From NCBI GenBank assembly GCA_964370545.1, contig CAYJJQ010000001.1, positions 25,605-89,604 of the forward strand: a stretch of DNA of 64,000 bases, read 5' to 3'. The notes beneath the pieces are model-generated. The model saw nothing but the letters and a program-made list of their open reading frames with translations, did no database searches and was not told the DNA's origin. Both the position numbers and the translations under genes were made by a program. Shown one piece after another: positions 20,401-46,957 of the stretch; positions within the stretch are counted from its first letter, which is position 1; each line of letters starts with the position of its first letter. Source of the stretch: an uncultured Muribaculaceae bacterium (GTDB lineage Bacteria; Bacillota_I; Bacilli_A; RF39; UBA660).

Positions 20401-20427
20401 ATGCTATAATAACAATAGTAGGTGGCT

Positions 20428-30152: not shown

Positions 30153-30533
30153 ATGAAAGTTATAGTTTGTGTAGATGATAATTTAGGTATACTTTTTAAT
30201 AAAAGAAGAGTATCTAAAGATAGTAAAATAATAGAGGATATAATAAGTAATTATGAAGATATTTATATTAATGAATATTCTAAAGAATTATTTATAGATA
30301 ATTATATAGTTAGTGATAAACTTGAAGAGGGAATTAATTTTGTAGAAAACAATTCTTTATTAGGAATGGAAGATAAAATAACTGAAGTAATTATTTATTA
30401 CTTTAATAGAAAATATCCAAGTGATCTAAAGTTAGAACTTGATTTAAATAAATATAATGAAGTAAGTAAAACTGAATTTGTAGGAAGTTCTCACGATAAA
30501 ATCACTAAAGTAGTTTATGAGGTGGTAAAATGA
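30153..30533 (+). CDS. hypothetical cytoplasmic protein, translationally coupled to the downstream nuclease-like gene
   Basis: 126 aa with no signal peptide. Its stop overlaps the next start (ATGA). Confidence 0.35.
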   Translation: MKVIVCVDDNLGILFNKRRVSKDSKIIEDIISNYEDIYINEYSKELFIDNYIVSDKLEEGINFVENNSLLGMEDKITEVIIYYFNRKYPSDLKLELDLNKYNEVSKTEFVGSSHDKITKVVYEVVK

Positions 30534-31755: not shown

Positions 31756-32553
31756 CTATTTAACTTTAAGTAAATATAACGAAACAGAGGGAGTATTATT
31801 AAATCTTATAGGTAAACTTTCTACTCCTAATCCGTTAGATACGTAAATGTTTTCGTAGTTGCCAAAAGTATATTTTTTAGCATTTTCTTTTGTAAATATA
31901 GGACTCATTAAATAAGGTTTTATTAACCCTCCTAAAGAGTGTCCGGCAAAATATATACTAGTATTATTATTTATATTATCAATTAAATCAGGTTCGTGAA
32001 TGAGCGTAATATTCATAGCAGGTTTAATATCTTCTTCTATAGCGTATGAATTAGTTATATCAGTTGTAGTAGTAAGACCAGTAATAGAAATTGGTGTTAT
32101 ATCTTTATAAAATAACAACTGTGTTTTATTATCAAGTAATATAAAATCGCCTTCATCCATAATAAATTTATAATTATCAATATTCTTAAGATCGTTATCT
32201 CCGTAAATAGAATATTTATATAAATTAGCATTAATTCCTTTTAAAAAATTAATTACTACATCTTTATCTTTAACAGAAATTTCATAGTTATCATCTATTA
32301 AATCTCCTGTAAAAAATACTATGTCAGGTTCTAATAAATTAATTTCAGTTTGTATTTTTTCTAAGTTATCCATATTAAAATTAGTATTAATTAGTAAATC
32401 TGAAAAGTGTAATATAGTCAGACCATCAAAAGATTCTGGCATAGAAGTATCTATAGTAAATTTATTAACTTCAAAACCATTTATAGCTATATATCTAGCG
32501 TATAAAAATATTAAAACTAATATTAATATAATTGCAAATAATATTTTTCTCAT
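31756..32553 (-). CDS. calcineurin-like metallophosphoesterase with N-terminal membrane anchor
   Basis: LTILHFSDLL (GDxHG-like D-x-H region), FFTGDLIDD (GDxxD motif), GHSLGG. Confidence 0.55.
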   Translation of the reverse strand: MRKILFAIILILVLIFLYARYIAINGFEVNKFTIDTSMPESFDGLTILHFSDLLINTNFNMDNLEKIQTEINLLEPDIVFFTGDLIDDNYEISVKDKDVVINFLKGINANLYKYSIYGDNDLKNIDNYKFIMDEGDFILLDNKTQLLFYKDITPISITGLTTTTDITNSYAIEEDIKPAMNITLIHEPDLIDNINNNTSIYFAGHSLGGLIKPYLMSPIFTKENAKKYTFGNYENIYVSNGLGVESLPIRFNNTPSVSLYLLKVK

Positions 32554-33176
32554 TAGACAGCTCCCATAGAAAATAATAGTGTTAAAGTAAGTGAGTTATG
32601 AAATATATGCATTATTATAGGTACATAAATATTATTTGTTTTATAGTGAGCATATGCAAATGCGGCACCAAGACCTGCATAAGGAATTATAAAAATAATA
32701 TCATTTCCAATTACATGTAAGTAACCAAATAAAAATGCGCTAATACCAATATATAAATATTTATTACTAAAAGATTTTCTAATACCTAATCTAAAAATTA
32801 ATTCTTCAGTAATAGGTCCAATTATAGCCATAGTAAGTATAGCGGTAAGCCCAAAATCACTAAGAGCCGTTCTATTTAATTCTTCATTTTCAGATATAGT
32901 ATTAAATATAGAATATAAAAAGTTGTTAGTTACTATCACAAAGATATAACCACATAACCAATATAAAAATATATCCTTAAAGTAATCTTTTTTAAAGTTT
33001 TGAAAATCTTTTTTAAAATCTTTTATGAATATAAATATAAATACTAAAGAAGTAATTAAACTAGATAAAAATAAAGTTAATCCCCCATCAAAAAATTCAC
33101 TTAATATTTCATTAGTGATTATTGTTAATATAAAATATAGTATTATATATAAAATAAATTTATAGTATTTTTTCAT
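32553..33176 (-). CDS. CPBP-family (CAAX protease / Abi) intramembrane metalloprotease
   Basis: Motifs ITEELIFRLGI (EExxxR), FLFGYLHV (FxxxH) and IIMHIFHN (HxxxN/D) in a polytopic membrane protein. Confidence 0.6.
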   Translation of the reverse strand: MKKYYKFILYIILYFILTIITNEILSEFFDGGLTLFLSSLITSLVFIFIFIKDFKKDFQNFKKDYFKDIFLYWLCGYIFVIVTNNFLYSIFNTISENEELNRTALSDFGLTAILTMAIIGPITEELIFRLGIRKSFSNKYLYIGISAFLFGYLHVIGNDIIFIIPYAGLGAAFAYAHYKTNNIYVPIIMHIFHNSLTLTLLFSMGAV

Positions 33177-33297
33177 AAAAATAAATTCCTTCTATTACTC
33201 TAAATTAAATATATCATAAAATGGCTAAATCTTCAATTTATAAGTTGAAGTTAGAGTGTAAATATGTTAATATATTATAAGAAGGGTAGAAAATCTT

Positions 33298-34035
33298 ATG
33301 AAGAAAAAAATTATATTATTTATGGCACTTTTATGTATGCCGATTTATGCTAATGCATCCACTTGTTCAACAGAAGAACAACTTACTTTAAGAAATGGAG
33401 CTAGCTTAATTACAGCGGCTTATGAAGAGTCAGAAAGAGAAGTTGATCCATCAACGTATATTCCTCCAGGAAATTTAACTGAAGAGGAAAAAGAAAATTA
33501 TGTTGAGATGGAAACATTTTTTAATATTAATATATTAAACATAACTACTGATTATTATGTTGAAATTACTAATAATCAAAATAATGAAGTTATTTTGGTT
33601 AGAGCAAATGATACAGAAGATGGTAAATATACATTTGAACATAATAATTTAAATACTGTTACAACTTATACCATGTCTGTGTATTCATCTAATGATACTG
33701 GTTGTCCAGATGAAAGATTATCAATTGTAAGAGTTACTACTCCAATGATTAATCCGTTTGCTTCATATGATGTATGTTCTATATATCCTGATGAAAGTGT
33801 TTGTCAAAAATATGTTACTACTCCAGGTTTTGATAGCACAATGTTTTATAACGCTATTAATGGATTAAAAGCTGAAAATGTGGAGAATCCAGAAGATGAT
33901 GACGATGGTGTAATAGCTGAAACAACAGATTTTATTAAAGATTATTATTTATATTTTATTATAGGGGCAGTAATAATTGCTGCAGGGGTTATAGTATTTG
34001 TGATACTAAAAAAGAAAAGAGGTAAGAAAAAATGA
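33298..34035 (+). CDS. secreted surface protein with C-terminal TM anchor; first gene of the Tad-like operon
   Basis: Signal peptide MKKKIILFMALLCMPIYANAS. C-terminal TM plus KKKRGKKK. Overlaps the next gene by 4 nt. Confidence 0.4.
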   Translation: MKKKIILFMALLCMPIYANASTCSTEEQLTLRNGASLITAAYEESEREVDPSTYIPPGNLTEEEKENYVEMETFFNINILNITTDYYVEITNNQNNEVILVRANDTEDGKYTFEHNNLNTVTTYTMSVYSSNDTGCPDERLSIVRVTTPMINPFASYDVCSIYPDESVCQKYVTTPGFDSTMFYNAINGLKAENVENPEDDDDGVIAETTDFIKDYYLYFIIGAVIIAAGVIVFVILKKKRGKKK

Positions 34036-37000
34036 AAAAAATAAGTTATTTAATAGTTTTCGTTTTATCAATTTTTATTTTTAGTAATGTAAATGCAGAG
34101 ACATTTAATGTTACTCATAAAGATTTAAAAGGACCTTCAGGTTTATATTTGGGGGATATGGATGATTCTTCTTATAATAAAACATTTTATATAACTGTAT
34201 ATAATGCTAATTACTTAGGAACGAATTATAGTGCGTTTTGTTTAGATCCGGGATTAAGAACGAATACTACTTACACAACTAGTGTAGATTTATCTAGTTC
34301 TTCTAGAAGAGGTTTAGAAGAGTATGATTATGGCCTTAAAACTATTTTAATTAATGGTTATAATATTAATAATACTACAACTACTAATCCAGTTACTGGA
34401 AGTAATTTAACAGCAGATGAGTTTAAAGTTGCAACAACTATAGCTCTAAGATCTTATGTACTTGCATGGGGAAGCTTTAACTCATCTTCAGTACTTACAG
34501 AGGAAAAATCGGCATATATAAATGAAACAGCATTATGGAATTATAATGCTGCTGAAGATGGAATATTTGATACACAGAGATTTGAATGGATTTCCAATGA
34601 AAAAATAGGACTAAATAGTTCCAAAAATTTTGATGATTATGATTCAAGTATAAACTTCAACTCGAGTAGCGAAGTTGGAGAAGGTGTATTCCAGGTTGCA
34701 AGAGAGCTATACTATGATGGTATGGATGCAGCAACAAAATATGCTACTACATCTCAATTAAGTCCTGATGTTGTAAATACATCAAGAGATGTTACTAATG
34801 ATGATGATTCAATTACTAGAACAATTACTTTAACGCCAACTAACTTTAATGGTAAAACAGGAACCTTAACTTCATTAAGAGTATCTGGTGTTAGTGGTGT
34901 TAGTTATAAAATAAGTAAAAATGGATCAGAATCAACACTTACATCATTTAGTAATGTTACTTTAGATGAAAATACAAAAATAATTATTACATTTACAGTA
35001 ACTCCTCAAACAGGAAAAAATGTTGATTATAATTTAAATTATTCATTTAATCATGAAGATTTAGATTCAGGAAGATTTATTCTTTTAGGAGAAGGTCAAG
35101 CAAACGTACAAAGATTACTTCTTTATGTACCAGGAGATACTAGTAAAGTATTTAATGATGAATTTACTATAGTTGGTGATGTAGCTTGTAAAACTGAAAT
35201 AGATATTCCAGGAGCTTGTTCAAATTATGATGATGAACATTTTACTGGAGAAATAAATGGACCAGAAGATATTAAAAATTGTGTAATAGATGGCCAAGAT
35301 GAAGCTGGTAACTCATACCAAGCTGAAACTTGTGATGATAATATAATACCATCGGATAGTAATGATTACTGTCAAGTTTATTGTACTGAGGATTTTGAAA
35401 TTGAATTTCCTGGTATGAGACCAGTAAATAGTGGTAGATATTTTGATATAGGGGCACAAATTGTTGCTACAAAATCATGTTATACTAGTGAAATAGATCA
35501 TGATCAATTTGATGAAGATATAGAAAATGCTATTAATGCTGTAATTGCAGCATATAATAGATATTCAGAAGCATCTGCAGTTGTAGAAGGGTTAAATTCA
35601 TCATATATTGGAACAAAAAAATATGATGATAAAGTTACATATTTTTCATATGATGCTGGTAGACCCGAGAAAACAAAACAAGAATGTACAGAAAGTATTA
35701 AAGATGGAGAAACTGTTGAAACTTGCAGAACTGTAGTTACTCAAAGTTATATTGCTCCGCATTGTGATAGAGATGGAAGTGGAACACATGATGCTAATGA
35801 ATGTGGCGATAGAATAGTTCCAAGCAAAAGTTATACAACATATTATATTTCTAACGGAGTACTTCAAAGTAGAACAGAGAATACTTCTTCAAAAACTTAT
35901 GATGGAGATGATGGTAATACATATTCAAATGGTATAATGTCATCTTGTAATGATAGGGTATCATCTTGTGATAACGGAAGTATACCATCTAGTGTAACTT
36001 CAGCAGCGAACAGTGAAAAATCATCGGCTAAAACTGCATTAGATAATGCAATAAATGCATATAATGCAATTATTAATGATTATAAATTATGTTCTGATTG
36101 GGATTATAGTTATGATAGCGTTCCTGAGATAACATATTCATATGAATCAAAATACGATAATTTACTTAGTGGTAGTGACAGAAAAATGGACTCTGATAGT
36201 TCAAGATTAGATGTTGATACTTATGAGTGTGATGAGAATTATGAAAATTGTGGAACTTTAGATAAGGAAACAGTATCATATATTACTTGTACAACAAGTG
36301 GTTGTACAACAACTTCTTACCAATTAAACAGAGATGCTGGAATAGTAAAAAAGACTGGTGATAAAACTATAGATTATGAAACACCAGAAATATTTTATCA
36401 ATACTGGCCGTCAGGAGAAGTATTTATAGAAGATGAGGGTTATGTTAATAGTAGTAATACAGGAACCGTAAGTACAGTTGATGGTTTACCAGTTGAAATA
36501 GAGCATAATGCAGGAGCATATGACTTTGTATTTACAATAGACGGACTAGGAGAGTATTATGATGACTGTGGTGAAGATGGAAGAATTATAAATGAATCTG
36601 ATCCAAGTGGAACTGTACTTGAAAAAAATGAAACAGCATTTGAAGGTGAATATGTATGTCAATATTTAGTTAACTGTCCAGAGTGTGAATTTGATGTAAC
36701 TTATATACCTGATCCAGATGAGTGTACTAACTGCTTATTTACAGCAGGATACTTACAAGCTCATTATAGACCTACATCAGTTGGTTCTTTAACTGCTAAT
36801 GATAGAGAAATGGGATGGAACTGGAATAGAAATGATGGAACATTCTTAGGTGAAAAAGCAGGGGATACACTTGATGATATTATTAATAATGGGGATTCAG
36901 TTTATTTAGGAACGCCGTTATTAACAGTTAACTTAACTGCGGATTTAGCAGCAGATATAAGAATGTATAACGATAGAGAAGAAAAAAATGGTGGATATAA

Positions 37001-37235
37001 AAATAATTCACTAAAATGTATTGATTCTGGAAGTTATGAAAACGTAATGTGTTATAGTACATTCTTTGATGATTACTTAGAACATTCAACATATAATACA
37101 TTATTTGTATTTGGTAATGACAGAGATGATATTGGAACATACTTTCAATTATATACAGGCGCTTCTATACCAGGAGGATCTACTGGAATTGGTGGACCAT
37201 CTTGGAAACTTAATGAGGAGGTGGAGTTAGGATGA
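34032..37235 (+). CDS. large (1067 aa) secreted Cys-rich protein, possible adhesin or pilus-associated protein
   Basis: Signal peptide. More than 40 Cys. No recognised catalytic motif. Stop overlaps the next gene by 4 nt, suggesting translational coupling into the Tad-like genes. Confidence 0.4.
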   Translation: MKKISYLIVFVLSIFIFSNVNAETFNVTHKDLKGPSGLYLGDMDDSSYNKTFYITVYNANYLGTNYSAFCLDPGLRTNTTYTTSVDLSSSSRRGLEEYDYGLKTILINGYNINNTTTTNPVTGSNLTADEFKVATTIALRSYVLAWGSFNSSSVLTEEKSAYINETALWNYNAAEDGIFDTQRFEWISNEKIGLNSSKNFDDYDSSINFNSSSEVGEGVFQVARELYYDGMDAATKYATTSQLSPDVVNTSRDVTNDDDSITRTITLTPTNFNGKTGTLTSLRVSGVSGVSYKISKNGSESTLTSFSNVTLDENTKIIITFTVTPQTGKNVDYNLNYSFNHEDLDSGRFILLGEGQANVQRLLLYVPGDTSKVFNDEFTIVGDVACKTEIDIPGACSNYDDEHFTGEINGPEDIKNCVIDGQDEAGNSYQAETCDDNIIPSDSNDYCQVYCTEDFEIEFPGMRPVNSGRYFDIGAQIVATKSCYTSEIDHDQFDEDIENAINAVIAAYNRYSEASAVVEGLNSSYIGTKKYDDKVTYFSYDAGRPEKTKQECTESIKDGETVETCRTVVTQSYIAPHCDRDGSGTHDANECGDRIVPSKSYTTYYISNGVLQSRTENTSSKTYDGDDGNTYSNGIMSSCNDRVSSCDNGSIPSSVTSAANSEKSSAKTALDNAINAYNAIINDYKLCSDWDYSYDSVPEITYSYESKYDNLLSGSDRKMDSDSSRLDVDTYECDENYENCGTLDKETVSYITCTTSGCTTTSYQLNRDAGIVKKTGDKTIDYETPEIFYQYWPSGEVFIEDEGYVNSSNTGTVSTVDGLPVEIEHNAGAYDFVFTIDGLGEYYDDCGEDGRIINESDPSGTVLEKNETAFEGEYVCQYLVNCPECEFDVTYIPDPDECTNCLFTAGYLQAHYRPTSVGSLTANDREMGWNWNRNDGTFLGEKAGDTLDDIINNGDSVYLGTPLLTVNLTADLAADIRMYNDREEKNGGYKNNSLKCIDSGSYENVMCYSTFFDDYLEHSTYNTLFVFGNDRDDIGTYFQLYTGASIPGGSTGIGGPSWKLNEEVELG

Positions 37236-37642
37236 GTAATGCGTATTGGGGATACTGGTTAGTATTACTTGGTGTATTTATTGTAGTTGTATTATTATTA
37301 ATACAAAACGTAACTACAGCTAACGTACAAAATGCTTCACTTATTAAAGAAATATCTGAAGCAGCAATGATTGATTCAGTAGATTATGCATATTATCGTG
37401 ATTACGGTGAAATAAAAATTAATGCTGAAAAATTTGAAGAAACATTTACAAGAAGAATGGCAGAAATAGTTACTGGTGGAACGACTTATAAAATTGAATT
37501 TCATAGAATTTATGAGTCTCCTCCAGCTATTGCATTAGATGTATCTAGTAGATCTAGTACATTTAATATATTTGGTGATGAAACAACTTTTGATTTAACT
37601 GATAGAGTAGAAGCTATTCTTGAAGGAAGTATAAAAGGATAA
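37232..37642 (+). CDS. small single-TM protein (TadE/RcpC-like accessory candidate)
   Basis: RBS GAGGAGG. N-terminal TM WLVLLGVFIVVVLLLI then a ~110-aa soluble domain. Confidence 0.3.
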   Translation: MSNAYWGYWLVLLGVFIVVVLLLIQNVTTANVQNASLIKEISEAAMIDSVDYAYYRDYGEIKINAEKFEETFTRRMAEIVTGGTTYKIEFHRIYESPPAIALDVSSRSSTFNIFGDETTFDLTDRVEAILEGSIKG

Positions 37643-37653
37643 AAGGAGGATAA

Positions 37654-38445
37654 ATGAAAAATTTTACGGGAGGACTAAAAAGGTTTTTATCTAATAAAAA
37701 CACAATAACGATATTAGCTGTTATTGTAGGTATTTTAGTATTATGGTTTGCTTATAATATGCGAGTGCAACAAGCTATTAAACCTCAATTAATTCCATAT
37801 GCCTTAGAAAGAATAGGGGCAACTGAACCTATTACTACTGAGAATATTGGATATATAGAAGTTAATGCTGATATGTTATCAAAAAGTGATATTATTACAA
37901 GTGCTGCTTTATTAGATGGTAAATTTATTACTACAGGAACATCTATACCTAAAGGTGGATTCTTTCATCAATCGCAAGTTGTTGAAGGTGAAACTCTTCC
38001 TAATACAGTGTTTGATCATATTGAAGATGGACATGGTTTATTCTCATTAAGAGTAGATAATGATTCTACTTACGGTAATTCAATTTATCCTGGGGATAGA
38101 ATAGATTTATATGTTAAATATGTAGATGAATTAGGAATAATAGTTTTTGGTAAATTTATAGAAAGTATAGAAGTGTTAGCAGTTAGGGATTCTCGTCAAG
38201 ATGATGTTTTTGATAGTGAAGATCCTTCTAATCCTTCGTTACTGTTATTCTCTTTACCAGAAGATACTAATAACCCAGAAAATAATTTATTTTACTGGTT
38301 AACACAAGCAAGTTTTATTCCTGGATTAGAAATAATACCTGTTCCTAGAAATAAAGCTTATACAGAAGAAGATGCAGCAACTAAAATAACTAGTTATGAA
38401 ATTCAAGCATATATTGAACTTTATACTAGATCTGCACTTCAATAA
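37654..38445 (+). CDS. CpaB/RcpC-like pilus assembly protein candidate (single N-terminal TM + periplasmic domain)
   Basis: RBS AAAGGAGGA. The TM (ITILAVIVGILVLWFAY) followed by a ~230-aa domain fits the CpaB architecture. No motif-level confirmation. Confidence 0.3.
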   Translation: MKNFTGGLKRFLSNKNTITILAVIVGILVLWFAYNMRVQQAIKPQLIPYALERIGATEPITTENIGYIEVNADMLSKSDIITSAALLDGKFITTGTSIPKGGFFHQSQVVEGETLPNTVFDHIEDGHGLFSLRVDNDSTYGNSIYPGDRIDLYVKYVDELGIIVFGKFIESIEVLAVRDSRQDDVFDSEDPSNPSLLLFSLPEDTNNPENNLFYWLTQASFIPGLEIIPVPRNKAYTEEDAATKITSYEIQAYIELYTRSALQ

Positions 38446-38482
38446 AATAAAAGAATAAAAGAATAAAAAAGGTGGTGAACGT

Positions 38483-39571
38483 ATGAATGATGCGATTTTT
38501 TCGCAGTTGGATTTTGGTCCACTAAAAGAATTTCTCGAAGATGAAAATGTCACAGATATTTCATACGGGAACGGTGGTCAAATCCACTTAAAAACACTTG
38601 ATAAAGGTGTATATAGAGTTGAAAGACCAGAAATAAATAATGCTTTATTAGAAAAACTTGCCTTTCAGTGTTCTAATGTAATGGGAACAACATTTAATAT
38701 GGCACATCCATTTCTGGATGCTGAAAGTGCTGAGTTACGTCTTAACTTTGTGCATGAATCTATTTCAACAAATGGGGTTGCATGTACTATACGTAAAACT
38801 CCAGCAAAAATAAGATTAAATAAAGATAAGTTATTAAGTGAAAAATACGTAACTGAAGAGTTGCATGATTTTTTACTTACATGTATTCATGGTCACTGTA
38901 ATGTTATTGTAAGTGGAGAAACTGGTTCAGGAAAAACAGAATTAGTTAAATATCTTGCATCACATACAGGAGAAAATGAAAAAATAATTACAATAGAAGA
39001 TACATTAGAACTTCACTTAGATAAAATATTTCCACATAGAGATATAGTAGCTATGAAAACTAATAATATAGCATCTTATTCAGATGTACTAGTTACATGT
39101 ATGAGACAGAATCCAAGATGGATATTACTATCTGAGGTGCGTTCTGCTGAAGCAGTAACAGCTGTTAGAAACTCAATATCTTCAGGACACAACATCATTT
39201 CAACAATTCACTCGGATAGAGCTAAAAATGTTCCGATGCGTTTATATTCATTACTTGAATCTAATCAAGATATTGATCAGTTCTTAAAATCTATACATAG
39301 ATATGTGCAGCTTGCAATTCATGTTAAAGGATATTTAAGTAAAGAGTTAGGAAGATTTCAAAGGGAAATAGTTGAGATTTGTGAATTTTATGTAACAGAA
39401 GATAATGAAGCTAAATCAAATGTTATTTATAAGAAAAATTTAGATGGTAAGGTAGCAGTGCAAAATCCATCAAAATATTTATATGAGTATTTAGGATCAC
39501 AAGGTGTTACGCTTAAAGAAAATGTATTTGCTGCAGCTAGCAAGCAAGAAGAGTTTATTGAATCATTATAA
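38483..39571 (+). CDS. TadA/CpaF-type secretion ATPase (VirB11/GspE superfamily)
   Basis: Walker A VSGETGSGKTE, Asp box ITIEDTLEL, Walker B DVLVTCMRQNPRWILLSEVR and His box SGHNIISTIHSD. Confidence 0.75.
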   Translation: MNDAIFSQLDFGPLKEFLEDENVTDISYGNGGQIHLKTLDKGVYRVERPEINNALLEKLAFQCSNVMGTTFNMAHPFLDAESAELRLNFVHESISTNGVACTIRKTPAKIRLNKDKLLSEKYVTEELHDFLLTCIHGHCNVIVSGETGSGKTELVKYLASHTGENEKIITIEDTLELHLDKIFPHRDIVAMKTNNIASYSDVLVTCMRQNPRWILLSEVRSAEAVTAVRNSISSGHNIISTIHSDRAKNVPMRLYSLLESNQDIDQFLKSIHRYVQLAIHVKGYLSKELGRFQREIVEICEFYVTEDNEAKSNVIYKKNLDGKVAVQNPSKYLYEYLGSQGVTLKENVFAAASKQEEFIESL

Positions 39572-39586
39572 GAAGGGAGAATATTT

Positions 39587-40489
39587 ATGGCAGGACTAGA
39601 GCTAGTTATTTTACTATTTCTGGGTATTTTTGTATTAATTTATAGAATGAACCCAGGAGAAAATGTATATAAATTTATAGTCAGAAGTGTTGGTGAAGTA
39701 TACGATAAATATGCTCCATATTCATTTAAAATGGTTCGTGAAAAAACTAAAGATTTAGGTCAAGAATATACTGCTAAACAGTATTTAACACAAGTAATAG
39801 TATTTGCTTTAGGAGCTGGCTTAGTTTCATACTTTTATTTTTATAGTATAATTTGGGCTTTAGTATATGCAGTAGGTGCGGTTGCATTTATTCCATACCT
39901 TGCATATCTTAGAACCCAAAGAATTTATAGTGAATATATATTTGAACAAATACAAATATATACTACAAATGTAATAATGGAATTTAATACTACTCAATCT
40001 TTTGTTAAATCACTTGAAGGAGTTAGAGATTCTGGAATACTTGAAGATCCAGTATTAACTGATTTAAATACTATGATAGAAATGTCGTATAAAAATGGAA
40101 CAATAGATGAATCAGTAATATATTTTAATGATAAATATCCATTTTATATGGTTAAAAATATGAATCAATTGTTCCTGCAGATTACTAAAGAGGGAGCTCG
40201 TGATGCAGGTCAATCATTAGAAAATATGTCACTTGATATTGATGCACTTGTTGAAGGTGTTTATAGAGATCAACTTGATAGAAAACAATTCCATGGTAAA
40301 TTTATTAAATTTGGATTAATACTACTATTATTAGTTCTAGTATTTCAAAATATATTAGGAGTAGATAGTTACTTAGAATTATTAGAATCTTGGTATGTGC
40401 CTATTGTACTTCACATGATATTAATACTAAATGCATACTTTCTAATAACAGGAGAGAAATACTATAATGAAGATGTGGGGGTAGAGTAA
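39587..40489 (+). CDS. TadB-like inner-membrane platform protein (T2SS-F-like)
   Basis: 300 aa with 3-4 TM helices and a cytoplasmic domain. Immediately downstream of the ATPase, as in tadABC loci. Confidence 0.45.
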   Translation: MAGLELVILLFLGIFVLIYRMNPGENVYKFIVRSVGEVYDKYAPYSFKMVREKTKDLGQEYTAKQYLTQVIVFALGAGLVSYFYFYSIIWALVYAVGAVAFIPYLAYLRTQRIYSEYIFEQIQIYTTNVIMEFNTTQSFVKSLEGVRDSGILEDPVLTDLNTMIEMSYKNGTIDESVIYFNDKYPFYMVKNMNQLFLQITKEGARDAGQSLENMSLDIDALVEGVYRDQLDRKQFHGKFIKFGLILLLLVLVFQNILGVDSYLELLESWYVPIVLHMILILNAYFLITGEKYYNEDVGVE

Positions 40490-41280
40490 TGATTTTATAT
40501 GAAATAGTTGCTATAGCCGTTATGATATTTGTAGTAATGACATTTACTGGACAGCTTAGTATTACAAAAATGATAGCAGATAATGAAATGTTATTTAGAA
40601 AATTAAAAGAAGAAGATTGGGATTTTTACGTTAGAGCTAGATATGGTGAAGGTGTTAACCCTAATGTTCTTTTTAACAAAAGAATTAAAAATGGATTTAT
40701 AGTTATTGCAGCTGCGTTAATTATATTTATTAGTCAGTTAACTGCAGTAATAGTTGTACTAGCTATAGTAGCAGGATTCTTGATTTTTAAAATGAGTCAC
40801 ATGCAATTAAAAGGTTTTTATAAAAGAAATATTCACCACATTGATGAAATGTTACCTCATTATCTAAAAAACTTAGAAATATTGATACAACATTATACAG
40901 TGCCAGTAGCAATAGGTAAATCAATGGAAACTGCACCTGATATTTTTAAAGAAGGGTTACAAGAATTAATTAATGAAATTAATTCAGGTGTAGGAACAAT
41001 CGATCCATACATGAACTTTGCAAAAAAATATCCGGTTAGAGATTCAATGAGAATGATGAGACTTTTATATCGTTTATCACTTGGTAAACAAGAAAGAAAA
41101 CAAGAACAGTTACTTACTTTTTCTAAATCAATTTCAAGTTTACAACAAAAAGGTAGAGATACTAGATATAAAAATAGACTTGATAAAATGGAAGGTAAGA
41201 CCATGGCAATGCTTATATCCACTGGACTTGGAGTTATGATTTTACTTATTTTATCAGTTTTACAAATGATGAACTTATAA
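40489..41280 (+). CDS. TadC-like inner-membrane platform protein
   Basis: 263 aa with TM helices at both ends. Start overlaps the upstream stop (TAATG). Confidence 0.45.
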   Translation: MILYEIVAIAVMIFVVMTFTGQLSITKMIADNEMLFRKLKEEDWDFYVRARYGEGVNPNVLFNKRIKNGFIVIAAALIIFISQLTAVIVVLAIVAGFLIFKMSHMQLKGFYKRNIHHIDEMLPHYLKNLEILIQHYTVPVAIGKSMETAPDIFKEGLQELINEINSGVGTIDPYMNFAKKYPVRDSMRMMRLLYRLSLGKQERKQEQLLTFSKSISSLQQKGRDTRYKNRLDKMEGKTMAMLISTGLGVMILLILSVLQMMNL

Positions 41281-41362
41281 CTTTACACTTATTTTTAAAA
41301 AAAGTTGATATTTAATAAAAAACAAGATATAATAACAATATATACTAGAGGAGGAATTTTAA

Positions 41363-41626
41363 ATGAAAGAAGCCACAGGAGAATTAAATATTACAGTTAT
41401 TACTGTAGTAGCAATTGCTGCAGTAGCAGCGCTATTTGCGGTATTTATTTTACCAGCTATACAAGATAACATCACACAATCATCAAAATGTAACTCAGCT
41501 GTTGCTTGCCAAGAAGGCGTGCCAGAAGCTGGATCTAAAACATGTCTTTACTATCCAGTAAATGAAGAGACAGGTGTACAAGGTGATCCCGAAACAATAG
41601 TTTGTAACTCAAATACTCAAGAATAA
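41363..41626 (+). CDS. Flp-like pilin candidate 1 (87 aa)
   Basis: RBS AGAGGAGG. MKEATG/ELNITVITVVAIAAVAALFAVFIL is a short polar leader ending in Gly followed by a ~22-aa hydrophobic helix. The tail carries 4 Cys. Confidence 0.45.
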   Translation: MKEATGELNITVITVVAIAAVAALFAVFILPAIQDNITQSSKCNSAVACQEGVPEAGSKTCLYYPVNEETGVQGDPETIVCNSNTQE

Positions 41627-41643
41627 AAAAAGGAATGATTTAA

Positions 41644-41871
41644 ATGAAAGAGGCTGCAGGAGAGCTTAATATAACGCTAGTAGTTGTACTTGCTATAGGG
41701 GCTTTAATGGCCTTTTTTTTAGGTGTAGTTTGGCCACTTATAGATGGAGAACTAACACACGATGCAAATTGTGATAGAGCAATTTGTGGAAGTGAAGCAG
41801 TGGATGGTATGGTTGTATGTCATGCAGATGATAACCCAGATATAACTTTTCATTGTCCATTTAAAGGGTGA
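41644..41871 (+). CDS. Flp-like pilin candidate 2 (75 aa)
   Basis: MKEAAG/ELNITLVVVLAIGALMAFFLGVVW, paralog of the previous gene; 4 Cys. Confidence 0.45.
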   Translation: MKEAAGELNITLVVVLAIGALMAFFLGVVWPLIDGELTHDANCDRAICGSEAVDGMVVCHADDNPDITFHCPFKG

Positions 41872-41875
41872 TTAG

Positions 41876-42340
41876 ATGAAAGAAGCGTATGGTGGAACCG
41901 GTTTATATGTTATAGTAATTACATTTTTATTACTATTTACAGGTATAATGGGTATGACTATTAATAGATCAAAAGCGTATTCAATAAAAGATGAAATAAT
42001 TTCTGCCATTGAAAGAGATAATGGTTTAAATATTACTCAGTCTTTAGAGAATAGTGATATAGCAGAAGCTATGGATCTCGGAGCTTATAGATCTATAGGT
42101 CAGTGCCCAGAAGAATATGAGGATAATTCTGAATATTTTGCATTTGATAGATTCGGAGCTAGAGTTACAAGTGCAGATCCTGCATCACTTTGTATCAAAC
42201 AAATAGATGTATCTGATACAGAGTGCTACTATAAAGTTATATTATTTTATGGTGTTGATTTCCCTATGCTTAATGAAATCTTTACATTTAATGTAGTAGG
42301 TGAATCATCTATTGTTACAGATTGTAGGCAGGTGAATTAA
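41876..42340 (+). CDS. TadE/TadF-like minor pilin candidate (154 aa)
   Basis: MKEAYGGTGLYVIVITFLLLFTGIMG leader similar to the Flp-like genes, with a larger globular domain. Paralog of the next gene (shared YYKVILFYGVDFPML / YYEVSLFFKFDLPFL). Confidence 0.4.
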   Translation: MKEAYGGTGLYVIVITFLLLFTGIMGMTINRSKAYSIKDEIISAIERDNGLNITQSLENSDIAEAMDLGAYRSIGQCPEEYEDNSEYFAFDRFGARVTSADPASLCIKQIDVSDTECYYKVILFYGVDFPMLNEIFTFNVVGESSIVTDCRQVN

Positions 42341-42786
42341 TGAGAGAAAGTATAGGAGCCTCTTGGCTATATGGACTTGTAATAACATTTATTATGTTGT
42401 TTTCAGCATTTTTATTATTAGCGCTTAACTATTCAGAAGCATTTGATAATAGAAATGAAGTGATTAATATATTAGAAAAATATGAAGGATATAATCCTAA
42501 TGCTATAACAGTAATTAATGAATACTTAAATGCAAAAGGGTATGATGATGATGGAAATTGTCCAGAAGGATCATTAGGTGCAACAATCGATGGTGATAGA
42601 TATACAACCGATTTAAATGGAAAATATAATTATTGTTTAACAGAAATAAGAAGTACTGATTATGAATCATACTATGAAGTATCGTTATTTTTTAAATTTG
42701 ATTTACCTTTTTTAGGAGATATACTAACATATCCTATAAGAGGTGAGACTGAAGACATCATTGTATATAATAGTGTAATTAGATAA
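42340..42786 (+). CDS. TadE/TadF-like minor pilin candidate (148 aa)
   Basis: MRESIGASWLYGLVITFIMLFSAFLLLAL; paralog of 41876..42340. Confidence 0.4.
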   Translation: MRESIGASWLYGLVITFIMLFSAFLLLALNYSEAFDNRNEVINILEKYEGYNPNAITVINEYLNAKGYDDDGNCPEGSLGATIDGDRYTTDLNGKYNYCLTEIRSTDYESYYEVSLFFKFDLPFLGDILTYPIRGETEDIIVYNSVIR

Positions 42787-42797
42787 GGAGTGAAAAA

Positions 42798-43790
42798 ATG
42801 AATGTAATAATATCAAATAAATATCAAGCTGTTCTAGGATCGCTAACTATTGATGTAATAAAAACAATTAATGGAGAGTTTAGTGCTGATGATATAATTA
42901 GCCAGTTCAAAACCTTTTTTTATAATAAAATGATTATTGATGTAACTGCTATTAAAGAGTATCAACAAATTAGAACTATTCAAAGTTTATCTTTGAATAT
43001 GGATATGAGTAATGTAATATTATTATTAGATGATTCTCCAGAAGTTAATTCACCACAATACTTATCACAGTTAGTTTCTATGGGAATATACAATTTTACT
43101 AGAAAAGCAGATTCAATAATGTATTTAATTGACCATCCTAATCAATATAAAGATGTAGCTAAATTCCAACAATTAAATGGAGAAAATCCATCAATGGAAT
43201 TTAATACTAAAATAGAAAAACAAGAAACAACAGGTTTTATAGGACAAAGAATAATTGGTATTAAGAATATTACTGCTCACGCAGGAGCAACAACTTTAAT
43301 TTATATGTTACATAAACATTTGAAAAATAAATATAAAGTGGTTGCTGTGGAGTTAGGTAGAAATGACTTTAGTCATTTTAGTGATGTAAAGATGGATAGT
43401 ATAGAAGCTACAGATTTTTCTAATTATATCAATAGTAACTTAGATAAAGAAGTTATTTTAGTTGATTTAAATGAGAATCCAGAAACATATTGTACTGAAG
43501 TAATTAATTTAATAGAACCTGGATTTATTAAACTTAATAAATTAATAAAAAAAGATGCTATGATATTCCAAAAATTAAAAGATCAAAAAATTGTTCTAAA
43601 TAGAAGTGTGTTATCTGATAAAGATGTATCAGATTTTGAAAAAGAAAGTGGAAGTAAAGTATTATTTAATTTACCTAATATTGATGATAAATTAGATAAA
43701 GTTGACAAAATAGTGGAACTATTAGTTTACCTGGGCTTTACACGAATTAACGAAAATAGTGATGATAAAGGCATATTTGGTATATTTTAG
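42798..43790 (+). CDS. TadZ/CpaE-like ParA/MinD-fold protein with degenerate Walker A (probable pseudo-ATPase)
   Basis: C-terminal half has IIGIKNITAHAGATTLIYML...KVVAVELG, i.e. MinD/ParA-like spacing (GxKGGxGKTT...KVLLIDLD) but without the P-loop Lys/Gly. Confidence 0.4.
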   Translation: MNVIISNKYQAVLGSLTIDVIKTINGEFSADDIISQFKTFFYNKMIIDVTAIKEYQQIRTIQSLSLNMDMSNVILLLDDSPEVNSPQYLSQLVSMGIYNFTRKADSIMYLIDHPNQYKDVAKFQQLNGENPSMEFNTKIEKQETTGFIGQRIIGIKNITAHAGATTLIYMLHKHLKNKYKVVAVELGRNDFSHFSDVKMDSIEATDFSNYINSNLDKEVILVDLNENPETYCTEVINLIEPGFIKLNKLIKKDAMIFQKLKDQKIVLNRSVLSDKDVSDFEKESGSKVLFNLPNIDDKLDKVDKIVELLVYLGFTRINENSDDKGIFGIF

Positions 43791-43844
43791 TTGACTATTA
43801 TATAAAACTTAGATAAAATATAAATATAAAGAAGGAGAGAAAAT

Positions 43845-44195
43845 ATGGATAATTTTTGTACTGAAACTTGGACAATATGGGAATTTGCTGGACAAGTGTT
43901 AATGATATTTAAAATAGTTATTCCACTTATAATAATTATTTTAGGAGCAATGGATTTAGGAAAAGCTGTTGTATCAAGTGATGAAAAAGAAATAAAAAAA
44001 GCTACAGGATCTTTAGTAAGAAGATTTATAGCGGGTATAATTATATTCTTTATACCGACTATAGTACACGTGGTATTTACAATGTTTGATTCAGTTCAAG
44101 TATCTGGAAATGATATTTGTACTAGTTGTCTTTCAAATCCAAGTACTTGTAAAAGTACTGCTTGTGATGCGAATCCAGGAGCTGAAGGCTGTTAA
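43845..44195 (+). CDS. small two-TM membrane protein with Cys-rich C-terminal tail; last gene of the operon
   Basis: RBS AAGGAGAG. TM helices IVIPLIIIILGAM and FIAGIIIFFIPTIVHVVF. Tail is CTSCLSNPSTCKSTACDANPGAEGC. Confidence 0.35.
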   Translation: MDNFCTETWTIWEFAGQVLMIFKIVIPLIIIILGAMDLGKAVVSSDEKEIKKATGSLVRRFIAGIIIFFIPTIVHVVFTMFDSVQVSGNDICTSCLSNPSTCKSTACDANPGAEGC

Positions 44196-44202
44196 TAAAA
44201 TT

Positions 44203-44228
44203 AATACTGTTTACAGTATTTTTTTTTT
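44203..44228. terminator. bidirectional rho-independent terminator
   Basis: AATACTGT-TT-ACAGTATT stem-loop followed by T10. Lies between the convergent genes ending at 44195 and 44269. Confidence 0.55.
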
Positions 44229-44268: not shown

Positions 44269-45495
44269 TTATTCTACAGCTCTCATTACACCAGAATAAG
44301 TATAGCCTTCTAATGTTTTAGAAGTATGCCATTTTTCTTCTTCTGTTGTATTAGTTCTTGTTCTTCCTGTTGGTTCATAATTATCAACATCATCATACCA
44401 CCCAGTTGAACTCCATACAGTTTCAGCATCCTCTTCAGTATACTCAACTTGGAATTTTAGTGGTACAGCAAATAAATTAATACCATATTTAGAAAAGTAA
44501 TAACTATCTACATTTCTAGCATTATGCATTTCTATTTCTATATCTACATAATATCTTCCAGATTTTTCATAAACTCTACTGATATCAAAATCAAAGTTTG
44601 AACTAGTAAGTGCTATATCTTTAAATGTATATTCATCAAGTGAGTAAACATTGTAATCTTCATTGTTTCCAACATGTAATATATCTTCATCTCTAGTTTC
44701 TAAGTATTTTCTATAATCAGTAAATCCGCTTGAGAAATATGAATCAGCTACTATTGTAGCATCCTCAATATCTAGACCTCTTAAATTAGTAAGTTCTAAT
44801 GTATACTCATAATCAAGTCCAGTAAACTCATATGTATCAGATACCCATCCAGTTGTATAGTATTGATAACTATCTACTGGTACGTATTCTTTTTCTACAG
44901 TTTCAATTTCTTTAACTAGTAAATATTCATATTTTGTTTCAGGATCTGGTGTTGGTTCAGGCTTTGGTGTTGGAGTAGGTGTAGGTGTTGGTGTAGGTGT
45001 TGGTTTGTATGTTACTACAAACGAACTAGTACAATTCTCACAAACGACATTACAATTAACAGTACATTCAGTTTCTTGAATAGTAGTTAATATATAATCA
45101 GTTTCTCCTCCACAGCTTAGTTGAACTTTTAGTGAATAATTATTATCCGCTATTTTAGTTACTTTAACATAACTATCTTCTAAACTACAAGATTTCCCAT
45201 TATCAGTAAAATCAATTACTAATTTTTGATTAATCATATTTCCTAAAGTAAGTGTTATTTCTTCATTTATGGCTTTAGGTAAATTACCTTCGTGAAAATA
45301 TCCTTCAGCAGCTACTTTCATTTCACTAATTTTATTTCTATATTCCATATTATCAGAACTACTAAATGCTGAGTTATTACCACCCGCAAGTGCTCCTACT
45401 ATTAAAAATATAATTATAACTACAACTAATACTATAGCTGTTTTAATACCGACTGAAGCCCAGTTGATACTTCTTTTCGAACTTTCTTCGTACAT
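44269..45495 (-). CDS. membrane-anchored protein, paralog A (conserved N-domain + Pro-Thr linker + conserved C-domain)
   Basis: N-terminal TM. Shared N-domain LTLGNMINQKLVIDFTDNGKSCSLEDSYVKVTK...LKVQLSCGGETDYILTTI. Linker TPTPTPTPTPTPKPEPTPDPE. C-terminal ...WHTSKTLEGYTYSGVMRAVE shared with 45629..46957. Confidence 0.45.
   Translation of the reverse strand: MYEESSKRSINWASVGIKTAIVLVVVIIIFLIVGALAGGNNSAFSSSDNMEYRNKISEMKVAAEGYFHEGNLPKAINEEITLTLGNMINQKLVIDFTDNGKSCSLEDSYVKVTKIADNNYSLKVQLSCGGETDYILTTIQETECTVNCNVVCENCTSSFVVTYKPTPTPTPTPTPTPKPEPTPDPETKYEYLLVKEIETVEKEYVPVDSYQYYTTGWVSDTYEFTGLDYEYTLELTNLRGLDIEDATIVADSYFSSGFTDYRKYLETRDEDILHVGNNEDYNVYSLDEYTFKDIALTSSNFDFDISRVYEKSGRYYVDIEIEMHNARNVDSYYFSKYGINLFAVPLKFQVEYTEEDAETVWSSTGWYDDVDNYEPTGRTRTNTTEEEKWHTSKTLEGYTYSGVMRAVE
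44945..45006. repeat. simple-sequence repeat (GGTGTA/GGTGTT)n encoding (Thr-Pro)n on the minus strand
   Basis: ggtgttggagtaggtgtaggtgttggtgtaggtgttgg, a hexanucleotide-like SSR inside paralog A. Confidence 0.7.
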
Positions 45496-45628: not shown

Positions 45629-46957
45629 CTATTCTTTTATTCTAAATTTACCTGTATAACTGTAACCAGCTAGTGTTTTTGCATAATGCCATACTTCTTC
45701 TGTATCAGTTATTTCTTTAAATTGATCTGTTCCAATATGGCTATTATCTTCCATAATTTGTTCTAAGTAATCAGTAGATTCAATGCTTATATATCTACAA
45801 GCTACATCTTCTTCAGCAAATTGAATAGAAAATGTTATTGGAATAAAATATACATTTAAACCAATTTCATCAGACCAGTGTCCTCTCATAGGATAGGGGT
45901 CCTGTTTAATTTCTATGTCTATATCTATATAATAATTACCAAATCTTTCATACAGTTCACTTCTATCAAAAGTATAATGTATATTTCTAACTAAGTTATG
46001 ATCTTTCATATCTTTTTCACTTATATCCATGACATCTAAAGTATTAGCACTAGAATTATATTTTACATTATGATTTTTATCATCTAAATAATTTTCAAAA
46101 TCATCTCCAGTAAATTCATCTGTTTTATAGTTTGTATAATATATATCGTAATGATCTAAATTAGTAAGTTCTACGGTATAGCTAAATGTATCTCCTTTAT
46201 CTACAGTAATAGGTACGTATATAGCTGTATAATATTGATAGTATTCAGAAGGGCATATTTCTTGAAATAACAAATCTTTTTCTCTAGTCATTAAATATTC
46301 ATATGTTGTGTCCACATCATCATCTTTATCATCATCATTCACATCATCATCATCTTTATCATCATCATCATCTTTATCATCGTCATCATTCACATCATCA
46401 TCATCGTTATCTTTGTTATCATCGTTATCTTTGTCATCGTCATCATCATCAGGAGTTGGCTTCGGAGTAGGTTTAGTAGTATTGTTATTATCATCGTCAG
46501 GCTCATTATCAGTATCATCATCTTCATGTTCAATTACAAAATCCACACCATCAATAGTAGTAAGTATATAATCATTTTCATCACCACAATCAAGTGCAAC
46601 TTTAAGAGCGTAATTATTATCAAGTAATTTAGTGACTCTAACATAACTTTCATTTAAGTCACATGATTTTCCTTTATCGGTAAAATCAATTACCATTTTT
46701 CTATTAATCATATCTTCAAGTGATAATTCAAATGTTTCACCAACTTCATCTGGTAGGTTATCATTTTGATAATAATTTAAAGCAGCATTTTTCATATCAG
46801 CTATCTGACTGTGATAAATTAAATTATTGTCGTTATCATTATTAAATAAAAGTAATATAATAAAAATAATAATTAATATTACTGCCAATCCAATAATAAA
46901 TATAAGATTACCCGAATAATTTTTGTTTAATTTTTTCTTAGTATTTTTTTTGCTCAT
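45629..46957 (-). CDS. membrane-anchored protein, paralog B (same N- and C-domains, poly-Asp/Lys acidic linker)
   Basis: N-terminal TM. N-domain LSLEDMINRKMVIDFTDKGKSCDLNESYVRVTK...LKVALDCGDENDYILTTI. Linker DDDDDDKDNDDNKDNDDDDVNDDDDKDDDDD.... C-terminal WHYAKTLAGYSYTGKFRIKE. Confidence 0.45.
   Translation of the reverse strand: MSKKNTKKKLNKNYSGNLIFIIGLAVILIIIFIILLLFNNDNDNNLIYHSQIADMKNAALNYYQNDNLPDEVGETFELSLEDMINRKMVIDFTDKGKSCDLNESYVRVTKLLDNNYALKVALDCGDENDYILTTIDGVDFVIEHEDDDTDNEPDDDNNNTTKPTPKPTPDDDDDDKDNDDNKDNDDDDVNDDDDKDDDDDKDDDDVNDDDKDDDVDTTYEYLMTREKDLLFQEICPSEYYQYYTAIYVPITVDKGDTFSYTVELTNLDHYDIYYTNYKTDEFTGDDFENYLDDKNHNVKYNSSANTLDVMDISEKDMKDHNLVRNIHYTFDRSELYERFGNYYIDIDIEIKQDPYPMRGHWSDEIGLNVYFIPITFSIQFAEEDVACRYISIESTDYLEQIMEDNSHIGTDQFKEITDTEEVWHYAKTLAGYSYTGKFRIKE
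46310..46500. repeat. low-complexity (GAT/GAC/AAA)n trinucleotide-type repeat encoding the poly-Asp/Lys linker
   Basis: Plus strand reads (catcatc/tttatc)n. The + strand ORF 46308..46571 is its serine-rich shadow. Confidence 0.7.

Follow-up and report, generated by a model that had tools for sequence, protein, structure and literature searches.

A conserved, highly diverged Tad-like locus of uncultured gut Bacilli, likely to encode a type IV filament machine, and its relatives in Gram-positive conjugation operons

A cluster of 13 genes, here numbered g01 to g13, lies on contig CAYJJQ010000001.1 (assembly GCA_964370545.1) of an uncultured gut bacterium, within a stretch of 64,000 nucleotides that was analysed as a whole (positions 25,605 to 89,604; below, the window, to which all coordinates without a locus label refer). 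The cluster is likely to encode a chromosomal, vertically inherited and highly diverged Tad-like type IV filament machine of uncultured gut Bacilli, a walled, low-GC lineage that is probably the Genome Taxonomy Database (GTDB) order RF39. Homology and profile searches identify its core: g05 as an ATPase of the CpaF/VirB11 family, g06 and g07 as a paralogous platform of the T2SSF type, and g04 as a CpaB/RcpC-like envelope protein. In the mechanism proposed here, the ATPase and the platform would assemble a surface filament whose main subunit would be g08, transcribed from a strong, conserved promoter of its own; the less abundant g09, g10, g11 and g03 would prime assembly as minor subunits, and g04 would form an envelope ring. 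The fast-evolving secreted proteins g01 and g02 would make up a contact or adhesin module that is displayed by the filament or works with it, perhaps in the manner of PilY1-type tip proteins, and contact with or adhesion to other cells or host surfaces would be the most likely use of the machine.

An initial annotation, made from the sequence alone, had described the cluster as a divergent Tad-like filament locus with divergent pilins, and the matches of the ATPase, the platform proteins and the CpaB-like protein support that description. The protein g05 contains, as had been reported, all four ATPase boxes (Walker A, GETGSGKT; Asp box, IITIEDTLEL; Walker B, RWILLSEVR; His box, SGHNIISTIHS), has no long N-terminal domain and matches T2SSE (PF00437) at 3.7e-28 in the Pfam scan. 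Its best PDB match is CpaF of Caulobacter (1.5e-17), narrowly ahead of FlaI and VirB11, and its top NCBIfam models are VirB11 and TadA-conj, all below cut-off. Judged by these comparisons, the superfamily is certain, the choice between the CpaF and VirB11 subfamilies is not. The CpaB-like call for g04 finds support in TIGR03177 (6.6e-9) and PF16976 (3.9e-4), both below cut-off, in an hhalign comparison with canonical CpaB (90.7%, E 1.3e-6) and in a match at 1e-30 between the g04 profile hidden Markov model (HMM) and the SAF protein of a Priestia plasmid that is described below.

Ordinary annotation is blind to the two platform proteins, g06 and g07, for which neither direct scans nor profiles returned a match in Pfam, NCBIfam or PDB sequences. 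An exhaustive phmmer search with g07 retrieved 481 remote homologues, including proteins of about 250 amino acids (aa) at 23-35% identity and fused proteins of about 500 aa, and the sole Pfam family that recurred among them, weakly, was T2SSF. The T2SS-F check that had been proposed along with the TadB/TadC call came out negative for g06 and g07 in the direct Pfam search, and positive through the weak T2SSF matches of g07 homologues and through hhalign. When an alignment of the diverse g07 family was compared with TadB and TadC of three alphaproteobacterial tad loci, hhalign gave 93% (E 3.3e-7 over 141 columns), with negative controls at 0.1% or less; g06 aligned with the g07 family at 71% (E 3.6e-5), and its HMM matched a Priestia 'type II secretion system F family protein' at 4.3e-12. 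An AlphaFold2 model of g07 reached a pLDDT of 93.7 and a pTM of 0.75. Since the alignment of the g07 family with TadB/TadC, that of g06 with g07 and the model agree, the TadB/TadC-like calls are right. The AlphaFold2 model of g06 was set aside as poor (pLDDT 55, from a shallow alignment at 68-77% identity), and a profile search for g06 homologues found close relatives only, none with a Pfam domain. Searches of PDB sequences were also empty with the profiles of g12, g02, the diverse g07 family (A5) and the fused g06+g07-like proteins (A6), and with the single g03 sequence.

The cluster is conserved far beyond chance. A scan with the ATPase of a collection holding one genome per species matched 433 places, of which the best 80 loci were kept for comparison. 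They come from metagenome-assembled genomes (MAGs) of the uncultured gut 'Bacilli', 'Tenericutes' or 'Firmicutes bacterium CAG:460' type, one named example being placed in 'Bacilli incertae sedis'; the lineage that carries them is presumably the GTDB order RF39. Across about 80 species-level genomes, the order g01 to g13 is identical in every locus that is long enough. The small proteins thus go along with the genes of the ATPase and the platform, and the first of the conditions named as refuting the initial annotation does not hold. The first two genes also accompany the locus, g01 in 67 and g02 in 75 related loci. Identity to the window copy is highest in the ATPase and lowest in g02 (Table 1), a gradient in which the motor is frozen and the exposed parts evolve fast. 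The locus occupies a fixed chromosomal position beside a conserved phosphoesterase gene, and no relaxase or integrase was seen. Around the window copy lie ordinary chromosomal genes (PcrA, LigA, an ABC transporter, FtsW/RodA, an LCP protein and an LtaS-like sulfatase), and the GC content of the operon and its surroundings is 24-31%. Because the window carries the cell-wall genes FtsW/RodA, LCP and LtaS-like, the host is a walled monoderm. About half of the loci have two tandem paralogues of g04, of which the window has one. Several MAG records with a Bacilli-type operon (L001, L002, L015, L021 and others) are titled 'uncultured Muribaculaceae bacterium', which looks like a taxonomic mislabel.

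All 13 open reading frames (ORFs) lie co-directionally on the + strand at 33298-44195 in the translation of the 64-kb window, as the initial annotation had them, and the start/stop overlaps it gave at 34032/34035, 37232/37235, 40489 and 42340 are all present. Its statement that the gaps measure 55 nt or less fails between g07 and g08, which are 82 nt apart, and its end point at 44228 turns out to be the T-run of a terminator-like hairpin, the last gene ending at 44195; the GC content of this hairpin is below what the rule of the terminator scanner requires. As for the single operon that had been proposed, the cluster holds as a conserved unit, the single transcription unit probably does not. 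Since the g07-g08 gap contains a conserved promoter followed by AGGAGG, the cluster probably consists of two transcription units. The internal promoter is the best sigma-70-like match of the region (11/12), 62 of 63 related loci have a relaxed -35/-10 pattern here, and in the gaps inspected the promoter hexamers and AGGAGG lie similarly far from the start of g08; a hairpin after g07 is present in some loci. The same spacer is an insertion hot spot (L004:3310-4664, L008:9205-13487, L009, L016, L022, L044, L050, L077). By sequence, the inserts comprise a repeated nuclease/transposase-like family, large polytopic membrane proteins and unrelated genes, and the pilin promoter is kept downstream of the insert.

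Table 1. Features of the cluster, with positions in the window; identities are medians to the window copy among loci of the best-80 set (TM, transmembrane; T4SS, type IV secretion system)
Feature	Position	Strand	Description	Median identity
Candidate promoter, first unit	33245..33273	+	TTGAAG-17-TAATAT, then GAAGGG ahead of the g01 ATG; read directly from the sequence	
g01	33298..34035	+	245-aa surface protein, Sec signal peptide, C-terminal TM anchor	31%
g02	34032..37235	+	1067-aa secreted Cys-rich protein	27%
g03	37232..37642	+	DUF5411 protein, pilin-like	54%
g04	37654..38445	+	CpaB/RcpC-like, N-terminal TM helix	45%
g05	38483..39571	+	Secretion-superfamily ATPase, CpaF/VirB11/FlaI group, 362 aa	84% (range 78-88% over 80 loci)
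g06	39587..40489	+	TadB-like platform protein, paralogue of g07	72%
g07	40489..41280	+	TadC-like platform protein, T2SSF fold	68%
Predicted internal pilin promoter	41305..41333	+	TTGATA-17-TATAAT, then AGGAGG	
g08	41363..41626	+	87-aa candidate major pilin	34-47% (g08-g11)
g09	41644..41871	+	75-aa second small pilin-like protein	34-47% (g08-g11)
g10	41876..42340	+	154-aa minor pilin-like protein	34-47% (g08-g11)
g11	42340..42786	+	148-aa minor pilin-like protein, distantly DUF4320-like	34-47% (g08-g11)
g12	42798..43790	+	330-aa cytoplasmic protein	59% (conserved at 47-72%)
g13	43845..44195	+	116-aa two-TM protein, Cys-rich tail, probably of the VirB2-like T4SS pilin family	48%
Terminator-like hairpin	44204..44228	+	AATACTGT/ACAGTATT + T10; read from the sequence, 3' of g13	

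That g08 to g11 are pilin-like is suggested by their position after the platform genes, their size and topology, their even cysteine counts, a shared N-terminus and a dedicated promoter with a ribosome-binding site. The four proteins begin, as had been noticed, with MKEATG, MKEAAG, MKEAYG and MRESIG, each followed by a hydrophobic helix, and are the only ORFs of the window with this signature; the Flp motif is lacking, with no Glu at +5 and no Tyr at +6 (MKEATG/ELNITV, the slash marking the presumed cleavage site). The sequence MKEATGELN opens 24 of 24 g08 orthologues and most g09 orthologues, and those of g10 and g11 begin with M[KR]E[AS]x[GS]. Initially listed as a small TM protein, g03 is indeed small with an N-terminal TM helix, and can now be named a DUF5411 protein (PF17424, 2.6e-46); its sequence logo reads MK[EN][AS]xW[GA] ahead of the helix, so that M-K-E-[AS] followed by a hydrophobic helix is common to five families (g03, g08, g09, g10 and g11). 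Position 6 is an invariant Gly in g08, Gly in 94% of g09 orthologues (Gln in a few), Ser (54%) or Gly (44%) in g10, and Glu in about 14% of g11 orthologues. The ectodomains have even numbers of Cys, four of them in the C-terminal part of g08, and g10 and g11 are paralogues (hhalign 100%, E 1e-38). Because of its own promoter, its invariant N-terminus and its small size, g08 is the candidate major subunit. The pilin models were run against 149 sequences, about 80 of them of the g08-g11 family, plus the window proteins. No Flp_Fap match was found in the window proteins or the roughly 80 g08-g11 sequences (hhalign to Flp at most 0.5%), the archaeal Pilin_N model was touched by 2 of the 149 sequences, at 0.013, and g10 and g11 matched no TadE model (hhalign at most 3.9%) despite their pilin-like topology.

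The lack of a linked prepilin peptidase, first noted for the operon, extends to the whole window and to the 80 related loci. Neither the polytopic ORFs of the window nor a scan of its six reading frames for a two-Asp motif (which detected 3 of 3 TadV controls) yielded an A24 peptidase, and none was hidden among the inserted g07-g08 genes, which were inspected by sequence. It is about an even chance that the leader of g08 would be cut after Gly6 (MKEATG/ELN...) by an unlinked A24 peptidase. The main alternative, which is less likely, is that the very short, net-neutral N-terminus is never removed. Such 'leaderless' pilins would be assembled without a prepilin peptidase; MKE[AS] would remain part of the mature subunit, where Glu3 or Glu7 would stand in for the classical Glu5. 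This fits the lack of a cis-encoded peptidase in the 80 genomes and in the pLS20-type relatives examined, the neutral net charge of the six N-terminal residues (K+, E-), the variability of position 6 in g09, g10 and g11, and the fact that in all five families conservation peaks at residues 1-4, whereas classical leaders vary. Cleavage is favoured by the constancy of Gly6 in the major subunit and its near-constancy in g09, by the form M-K-x-x-x-G, which matches the type IVa leader in length and form (that of P. aeruginosa PilA is MKAQKG/F), by the TadV-like gene that the Priestia relative retains, and by ComC, which most Bacilli encode elsewhere in the genome; moreover, we know of no case in which an unprocessed type IV pilin polymerises. 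A CPBP/Rce1-like intramembrane protease gene (32553-33176, - strand), divergent and just upstream of the operon, was considered as the processing enzyme and rejected: it stands beside the operon in just 21 loci, against 45 with an adjacent phosphoesterase, and is for this reason probably unrelated to pilin processing.

The two large proteins at the head of the cluster yielded nothing useful in Pfam and NCBIfam scans. Besides its signal peptide and anchor, g01 has a weakly Fn3-like middle part and a KKKRGKKK tail. The sequence of g02 is conserved in the centre and towards the C-terminus and varies in its N-terminal part; family scans found no known domain and no internalin or leucine-rich repeat similarity, and a homologue search returned 2 proteins only. 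A thioester adhesin (TED), suspected from a YCxDP motif, was rejected, as g02 gave no TED match and has no conserved Gln at the expected site. In the plasmid relatives, the position of g02 is held by thioester, isopeptide or Ig-like adhesins, and g02 is a candidate adhesin or tip-associated protein. The g01-g02 cassette is tandemly duplicated in L001, L002 and L021, the L021 copy including g03.

These proteins could also be the substrates of a pseudopilus. In this explanation, which is quite unlikely, g08 to g11 would form a short piston, similar to that of type II secretion systems or to Kil, that exports g01 and g02 or exposes them through the thick wall. Two secreted proteins invariably head the cluster, and their duplication in some genomes points the same way; Tad-like machines with uses other than adhesion are known, such as Kil of Myxococcus (PMC8460266), and a related operon of Clostridia has been classed as 'secretion-related' (PMC9523054). 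However, g01 and g02 carry ordinary Sec signal peptides and g01 is membrane-anchored, so they would need no special exporter across the membrane, and the strong dedicated promoter of g08 suits an abundant filament subunit.

Tad/Flp loci (type IVc; Aggregatibacter, Caulobacter, rhizobia) share with the window a CpaF-type ATPase gene followed by two T2SSF genes, a CpaB/RcpC gene upstream, and a small major pilin with larger minor pilin-like proteins. Unlike them, the window has no Flp motif (G/xxxxEY), no TadV, no recognisable TadE/F or TadZ and, as expected in a monoderm, no secretin; its ATPase lacks the long N-terminal region, its platform proteins are too diverged for Pfam, and DUF5411, the two large secreted proteins and a VirB2-like protein are additions. 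Classical tad loci are not the nearest kin; a DUF5411-type plasmid locus and a CpaF/VirB11 module of the pLS20 family are closer. Gram-positive tad-like loci without a recognisable prepilin motif, the 'no Flp_2' group, have been described (Imam et al. 2011, PMC3244431), and this group and the TANB77 cluster (PMC11680825) resemble the window in their diverged Firmicutes tad genes and in pilin candidates that motif or HMM searches miss. In the former, however, tadV and tadZ are still present, and the latter has a fused TadC-TadB, a TadZ/CpaE recognisable by structure and another set of pilins. A 'secretion-related' operon with CpaF, PilC/GspF, DUF5411 and an internalin-like protein is known from Roseburia, Ruminococcus and Eubacterium (Miller et al. 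2022, PMC9523054). By its description, it shares DUF5411, a CpaF-type ATPase, a platform protein and a large surface protein with the window, the other genes being unrecognisable; it differs in its 8-9 genes and its occurrence in Clostridia, and no pilin motif, VirB2-like gene or T4SS link is described for it. The system is thus already known in pieces, as prepilin-less tad-like loci (PMC3244431), the DUF5411+CpaF operon (PMC9523054) and the TANB77 cluster (PMC11680825). Its RF39-wide conservation, the MKE[AS] signature, the family-wide lack of a peptidase in cis and the homology to pLS20 conjugation genes appear to be new.

In a plasmid collection, the best match of the ATPase (33.7% identity) was found on Priestia koreensis plasmid NZ_CP061869, where the gene order is SLH protein, 993-aa Ig-like protein, DUF5411, SAF/CpaB, ParA-like, CpaF, T2SS F family, a second platform-like protein and DUF4320. 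The RF39 HMMs match its DUF5411 protein (g03, 3.3e-5), SAF protein, ATPase and both platform proteins, and the order of surface protein, large Ig-like protein, DUF5411, SAF/CpaB, ATPase, two T2SSF(-like) proteins and DUF4320 is like that of the window. Upstream of the locus are a 493-aa ParA-like protein and a 172-aa polytopic protein (L082:4461-4979). The latter has TadV-type motifs (ITDVK..., SPGDTKMF) with the Asp18-Asp74 spacing of rhizobial TadV, and no Pfam A24 match at E 0.01 or below. The Priestia locus thus differs from the window by a TadV-like protein, two ParA/TadZ-like genes and the absence of small pilins of the MKEATG type.

The next-best plasmid matches were 'CpaF/VirB11 family' genes in pLS20-type conjugation operons (pBS72, Paraclostridium, Virgibacillus). 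In these, the ATPase comes after a large adhesin of the thioester or isopeptide kind and a small protein whose TM helix is N-terminal, and a pair of membrane proteins of about 250 aa either follows the ATPase (Paraclostridium, Virgibacillus) or has one member on each side (pBS72). Downstream, Paraclostridium and Virgibacillus have DUF4320, tiny TM proteins, a VirB2-like or TrbC/VirB2-family protein, VirD4 and a VirB6-like protein; pBS72 additionally has VirB3-like and VirB4. In searches of very small databases, to which the E-values refer, the RF39 HMM of the ATPase matched these operons at 1e-40 to 1e-53, the g06, g07, A5 and A6 HMMs their ~250-aa membrane proteins at 2e-17 to 1e-3, the g03 HMM the small protein upstream of the Virgibacillus ATPase at 9.5e-9, and the g11 HMM the DUF4320 proteins at 5e-5 and 4e-4. 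T2SSF-like profiles matched the plasmid loci at L081:11213-11923, L081:13392-14213, L086:10007-11544 and L087:10144-11675. These matches, one to one at five positions, point to a cryptic Tad-like module within the conjugation operons of Gram-positive bacteria. In pLS20, genes 36 and 38-41 are given as unknown and gene 37 as 'putative VirB11' (PMC8557374), and a literature search found no paper that ties pLS20 to TadB, TadC or CpaF. The pLS20 family (genes 34-45; pBS72, Paraclostridium, Virgibacillus) shares with the window, in the same order, the adhesin, the DUF5411-like protein, the ATPase, two T2SSF-like proteins, DUF4320 and a VirB2-like protein, and a peptidase in cis was likewise not found. 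Its operons are plasmid-borne and continue into VirD4, VirB6, VirB3, VirB4 and relaxase, whereas that of the window is chromosomal and stands alone; they also have no genes like that of CpaB or g12, and their small proteins show no sequence relationship with g08 and g09.

The proposed TadZ-like identity of g12 was not confirmed by Pfam, NCBIfam or PDB searches, nor by hhalign to TadZ, for which TadZ/CpaE references were chosen by locus position (annotated 'pilus assembly protein', 'AAA family ATPase' or 'hypothetical protein'). What remains is a motif resemblance: a degenerate P-loop-like stretch (…HAGATTL…) is similar to GAKGGTGSSTLA of a Sinorhizobium protein at the CpaE/TadZ position that is annotated 'AAA family ATPase', and g12 is possibly a degenerate TadZ/ParA-like protein. 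For g13, which had been described as a Cys-tailed membrane protein, two TM helices, read from the sequence, and a Cys-rich tail are present, and the protein probably belongs to the T4SS_pilin family (PF18895), which has been treated as VirB2-like (PMC12102498). The window copy scores 3.5e-5 (24.2 bits, cut-off 26.6), and 19 of about 31 members of the g13 family, which has 1-4 copies per locus, match the model, at best at 1.9e-6. It may be a remnant or a partner of a T4SS. In a subclade of 8-12 related genomes, T4SS-like genes follow g13 directly and in the same direction (L029:15984-20985, L031:15972-21078, L006, L010, L022, L038, L039, L045, L060, L065, L077, L078). They encode secreted proteins ending in a g13-like two-TM domain, a VirB6-like protein of 680-830 aa, a PrgI/VirB3-like protein and a VirB4 that is closest to the Mycoplasma integrative and conjugative element (ICE) type (VirB4_plasma, 8e-105), not to the pLS20_p028 type; no VirD4 or relaxase was seen within the fetched flanks. 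A tblastn search of the window with these proteins found no T4SS gene, the lone match being 24 residues of g13 (6.8e-5).

On account of the pLS20-family operons, the VirB2-like g13 and the VirB4/VirB6/VirB3 module of the subclade, the system can be assigned, by homology, to a branch of Tad-like modules in Firmicutes with evolutionary ties to monoderm T4SS. The cluster could even be part of a conjugation-type T4SS apparatus, in which g05 would act as VirB11, g13 as the T4SS pilin and the Tad-like module as the builder of a structure that spans the wall or joins mating pairs; the apparatus would transfer DNA or effectors and would not be an autonomous adhesion pilus. This is doubtful. It is favoured by the plasmid ATPase matches that rank after Priestia, which lie beside VirD4, VirB6-like and VirB4 genes, by the five one-to-one positions, by g13 itself and by the T4SS genes behind it in the subclade. 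Against it, VirB4, VirB6 and VirD4 are not nearby in the window and in most related loci, where a 408-aa anchored protein (d_408) stands instead; the site beside the phosphoesterase gene is fixed and chromosomal, with neither relaxase nor integrase; the presence of CpaB and of two T2SSF proteins is the hallmark of a type IV filament system and not of a T4SS; and the Priestia relative has no T4SS within 12 kb.

The preferred reading, a Tad-like filament machine used for cell contact, has several results against it as well. The Flp_Fap, TadE, DUF4320 and N_methyl models fail to recognise g08 to g11, which also fail the PilFind motif [GAS]-x4-[DE] (PMC3244431). The two-Asp scan found no A24 peptidase among 237 polytopic ORFs of the 80 loci with 10-kb flanks, g05 scores equally well against VirB11 and CpaF models, and g12 has no link to TadZ in any of the searches made. 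The roles given to g01 and g02 come only from position and signal peptides, and g13 and the T4SS that adjoins the cluster in a subclade could place the function in transfer or secretion instead of adhesion.

A pilus for DNA uptake is very improbable. In its favour are the Tad/Flp pilus by which Micrococcus luteus is transformed (PMC4322843), the possibility that bacteria with reduced genomes scavenge DNA, and a gene for a secreted non-specific nuclease 2 kb upstream of the cluster (30530-31216, + strand; Endonuclea_NS_2, 1.5e-23). This nuclease, however, stands beside the operon in 0 of 80 loci, the cluster contains no ComEA/ComEC-like genes, and large adhesin-like proteins are foreign to competence pili.

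Downstream of the cluster, and on the opposite strand, are two paralogous proteins with an N-terminal anchor, the 408-aa protein mentioned above (44269-45495, - strand) and one of 442 aa (45629-46957, - strand). In both, the TM helix is followed by a conserved domain, then by a linker that is either Pro-Thr or an extremely acidic Asp/Lys sequence, and finally by a conserved C-terminal domain; about 30 related loci have one or the other convergent to the operon. Outside the linker, neither a family nor a PDB match was found; d_408 had appeared pilin-like by eye and was rejected, as the PDB search matched just its Pro-Thr linker. Elsewhere in the window, a 1044-aa ORF with a GTG start (20422-23556, + strand) has a weak DUF6273 match (3.3e-4) and lies in the stretch of highest GC (0.31-0.36).

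For the lineage, a very abundant group of uncultured gut bacteria, the cluster represents a surface machine that belongs to the core and is under strong constraint. With an ATPase that is about 84% identical and putative adhesins at about 27%, the machine is likely to be central to attachment to, or interaction with, other cells. Apart from the ATPase and DUF5411, none of its parts is annotated in public data, so that current pipelines miss the system. With its invariant, non-canonical pilin N-terminus and no linked peptidase, it offers a test of whether type IV pilins can assemble without leader removal. For pLS20, genes 36-41, listed as 'unknown', gain a testable identity as platform and pilin-like proteins in a tractable Bacillus subtilis system. 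To our knowledge, Gram-positive T4SS are generally thought to be pilus-less, and the homology bears on how Gram-positive conjugation makes contact without a known pilus. In a bolder version, which is unlikely, the window machine and the genes around the pLS20-family 'VirB11' would form a distinct, unrecognised monoderm branch of the type IV filament superfamily, in which unprocessed MKE[AS] subunits polymerise without a peptidase; its original role would have been the contact or wall-spanning structure of Gram-positive T4SS, later domesticated in reduced-genome gut Bacilli as a core chromosomal organelle of cell contact.

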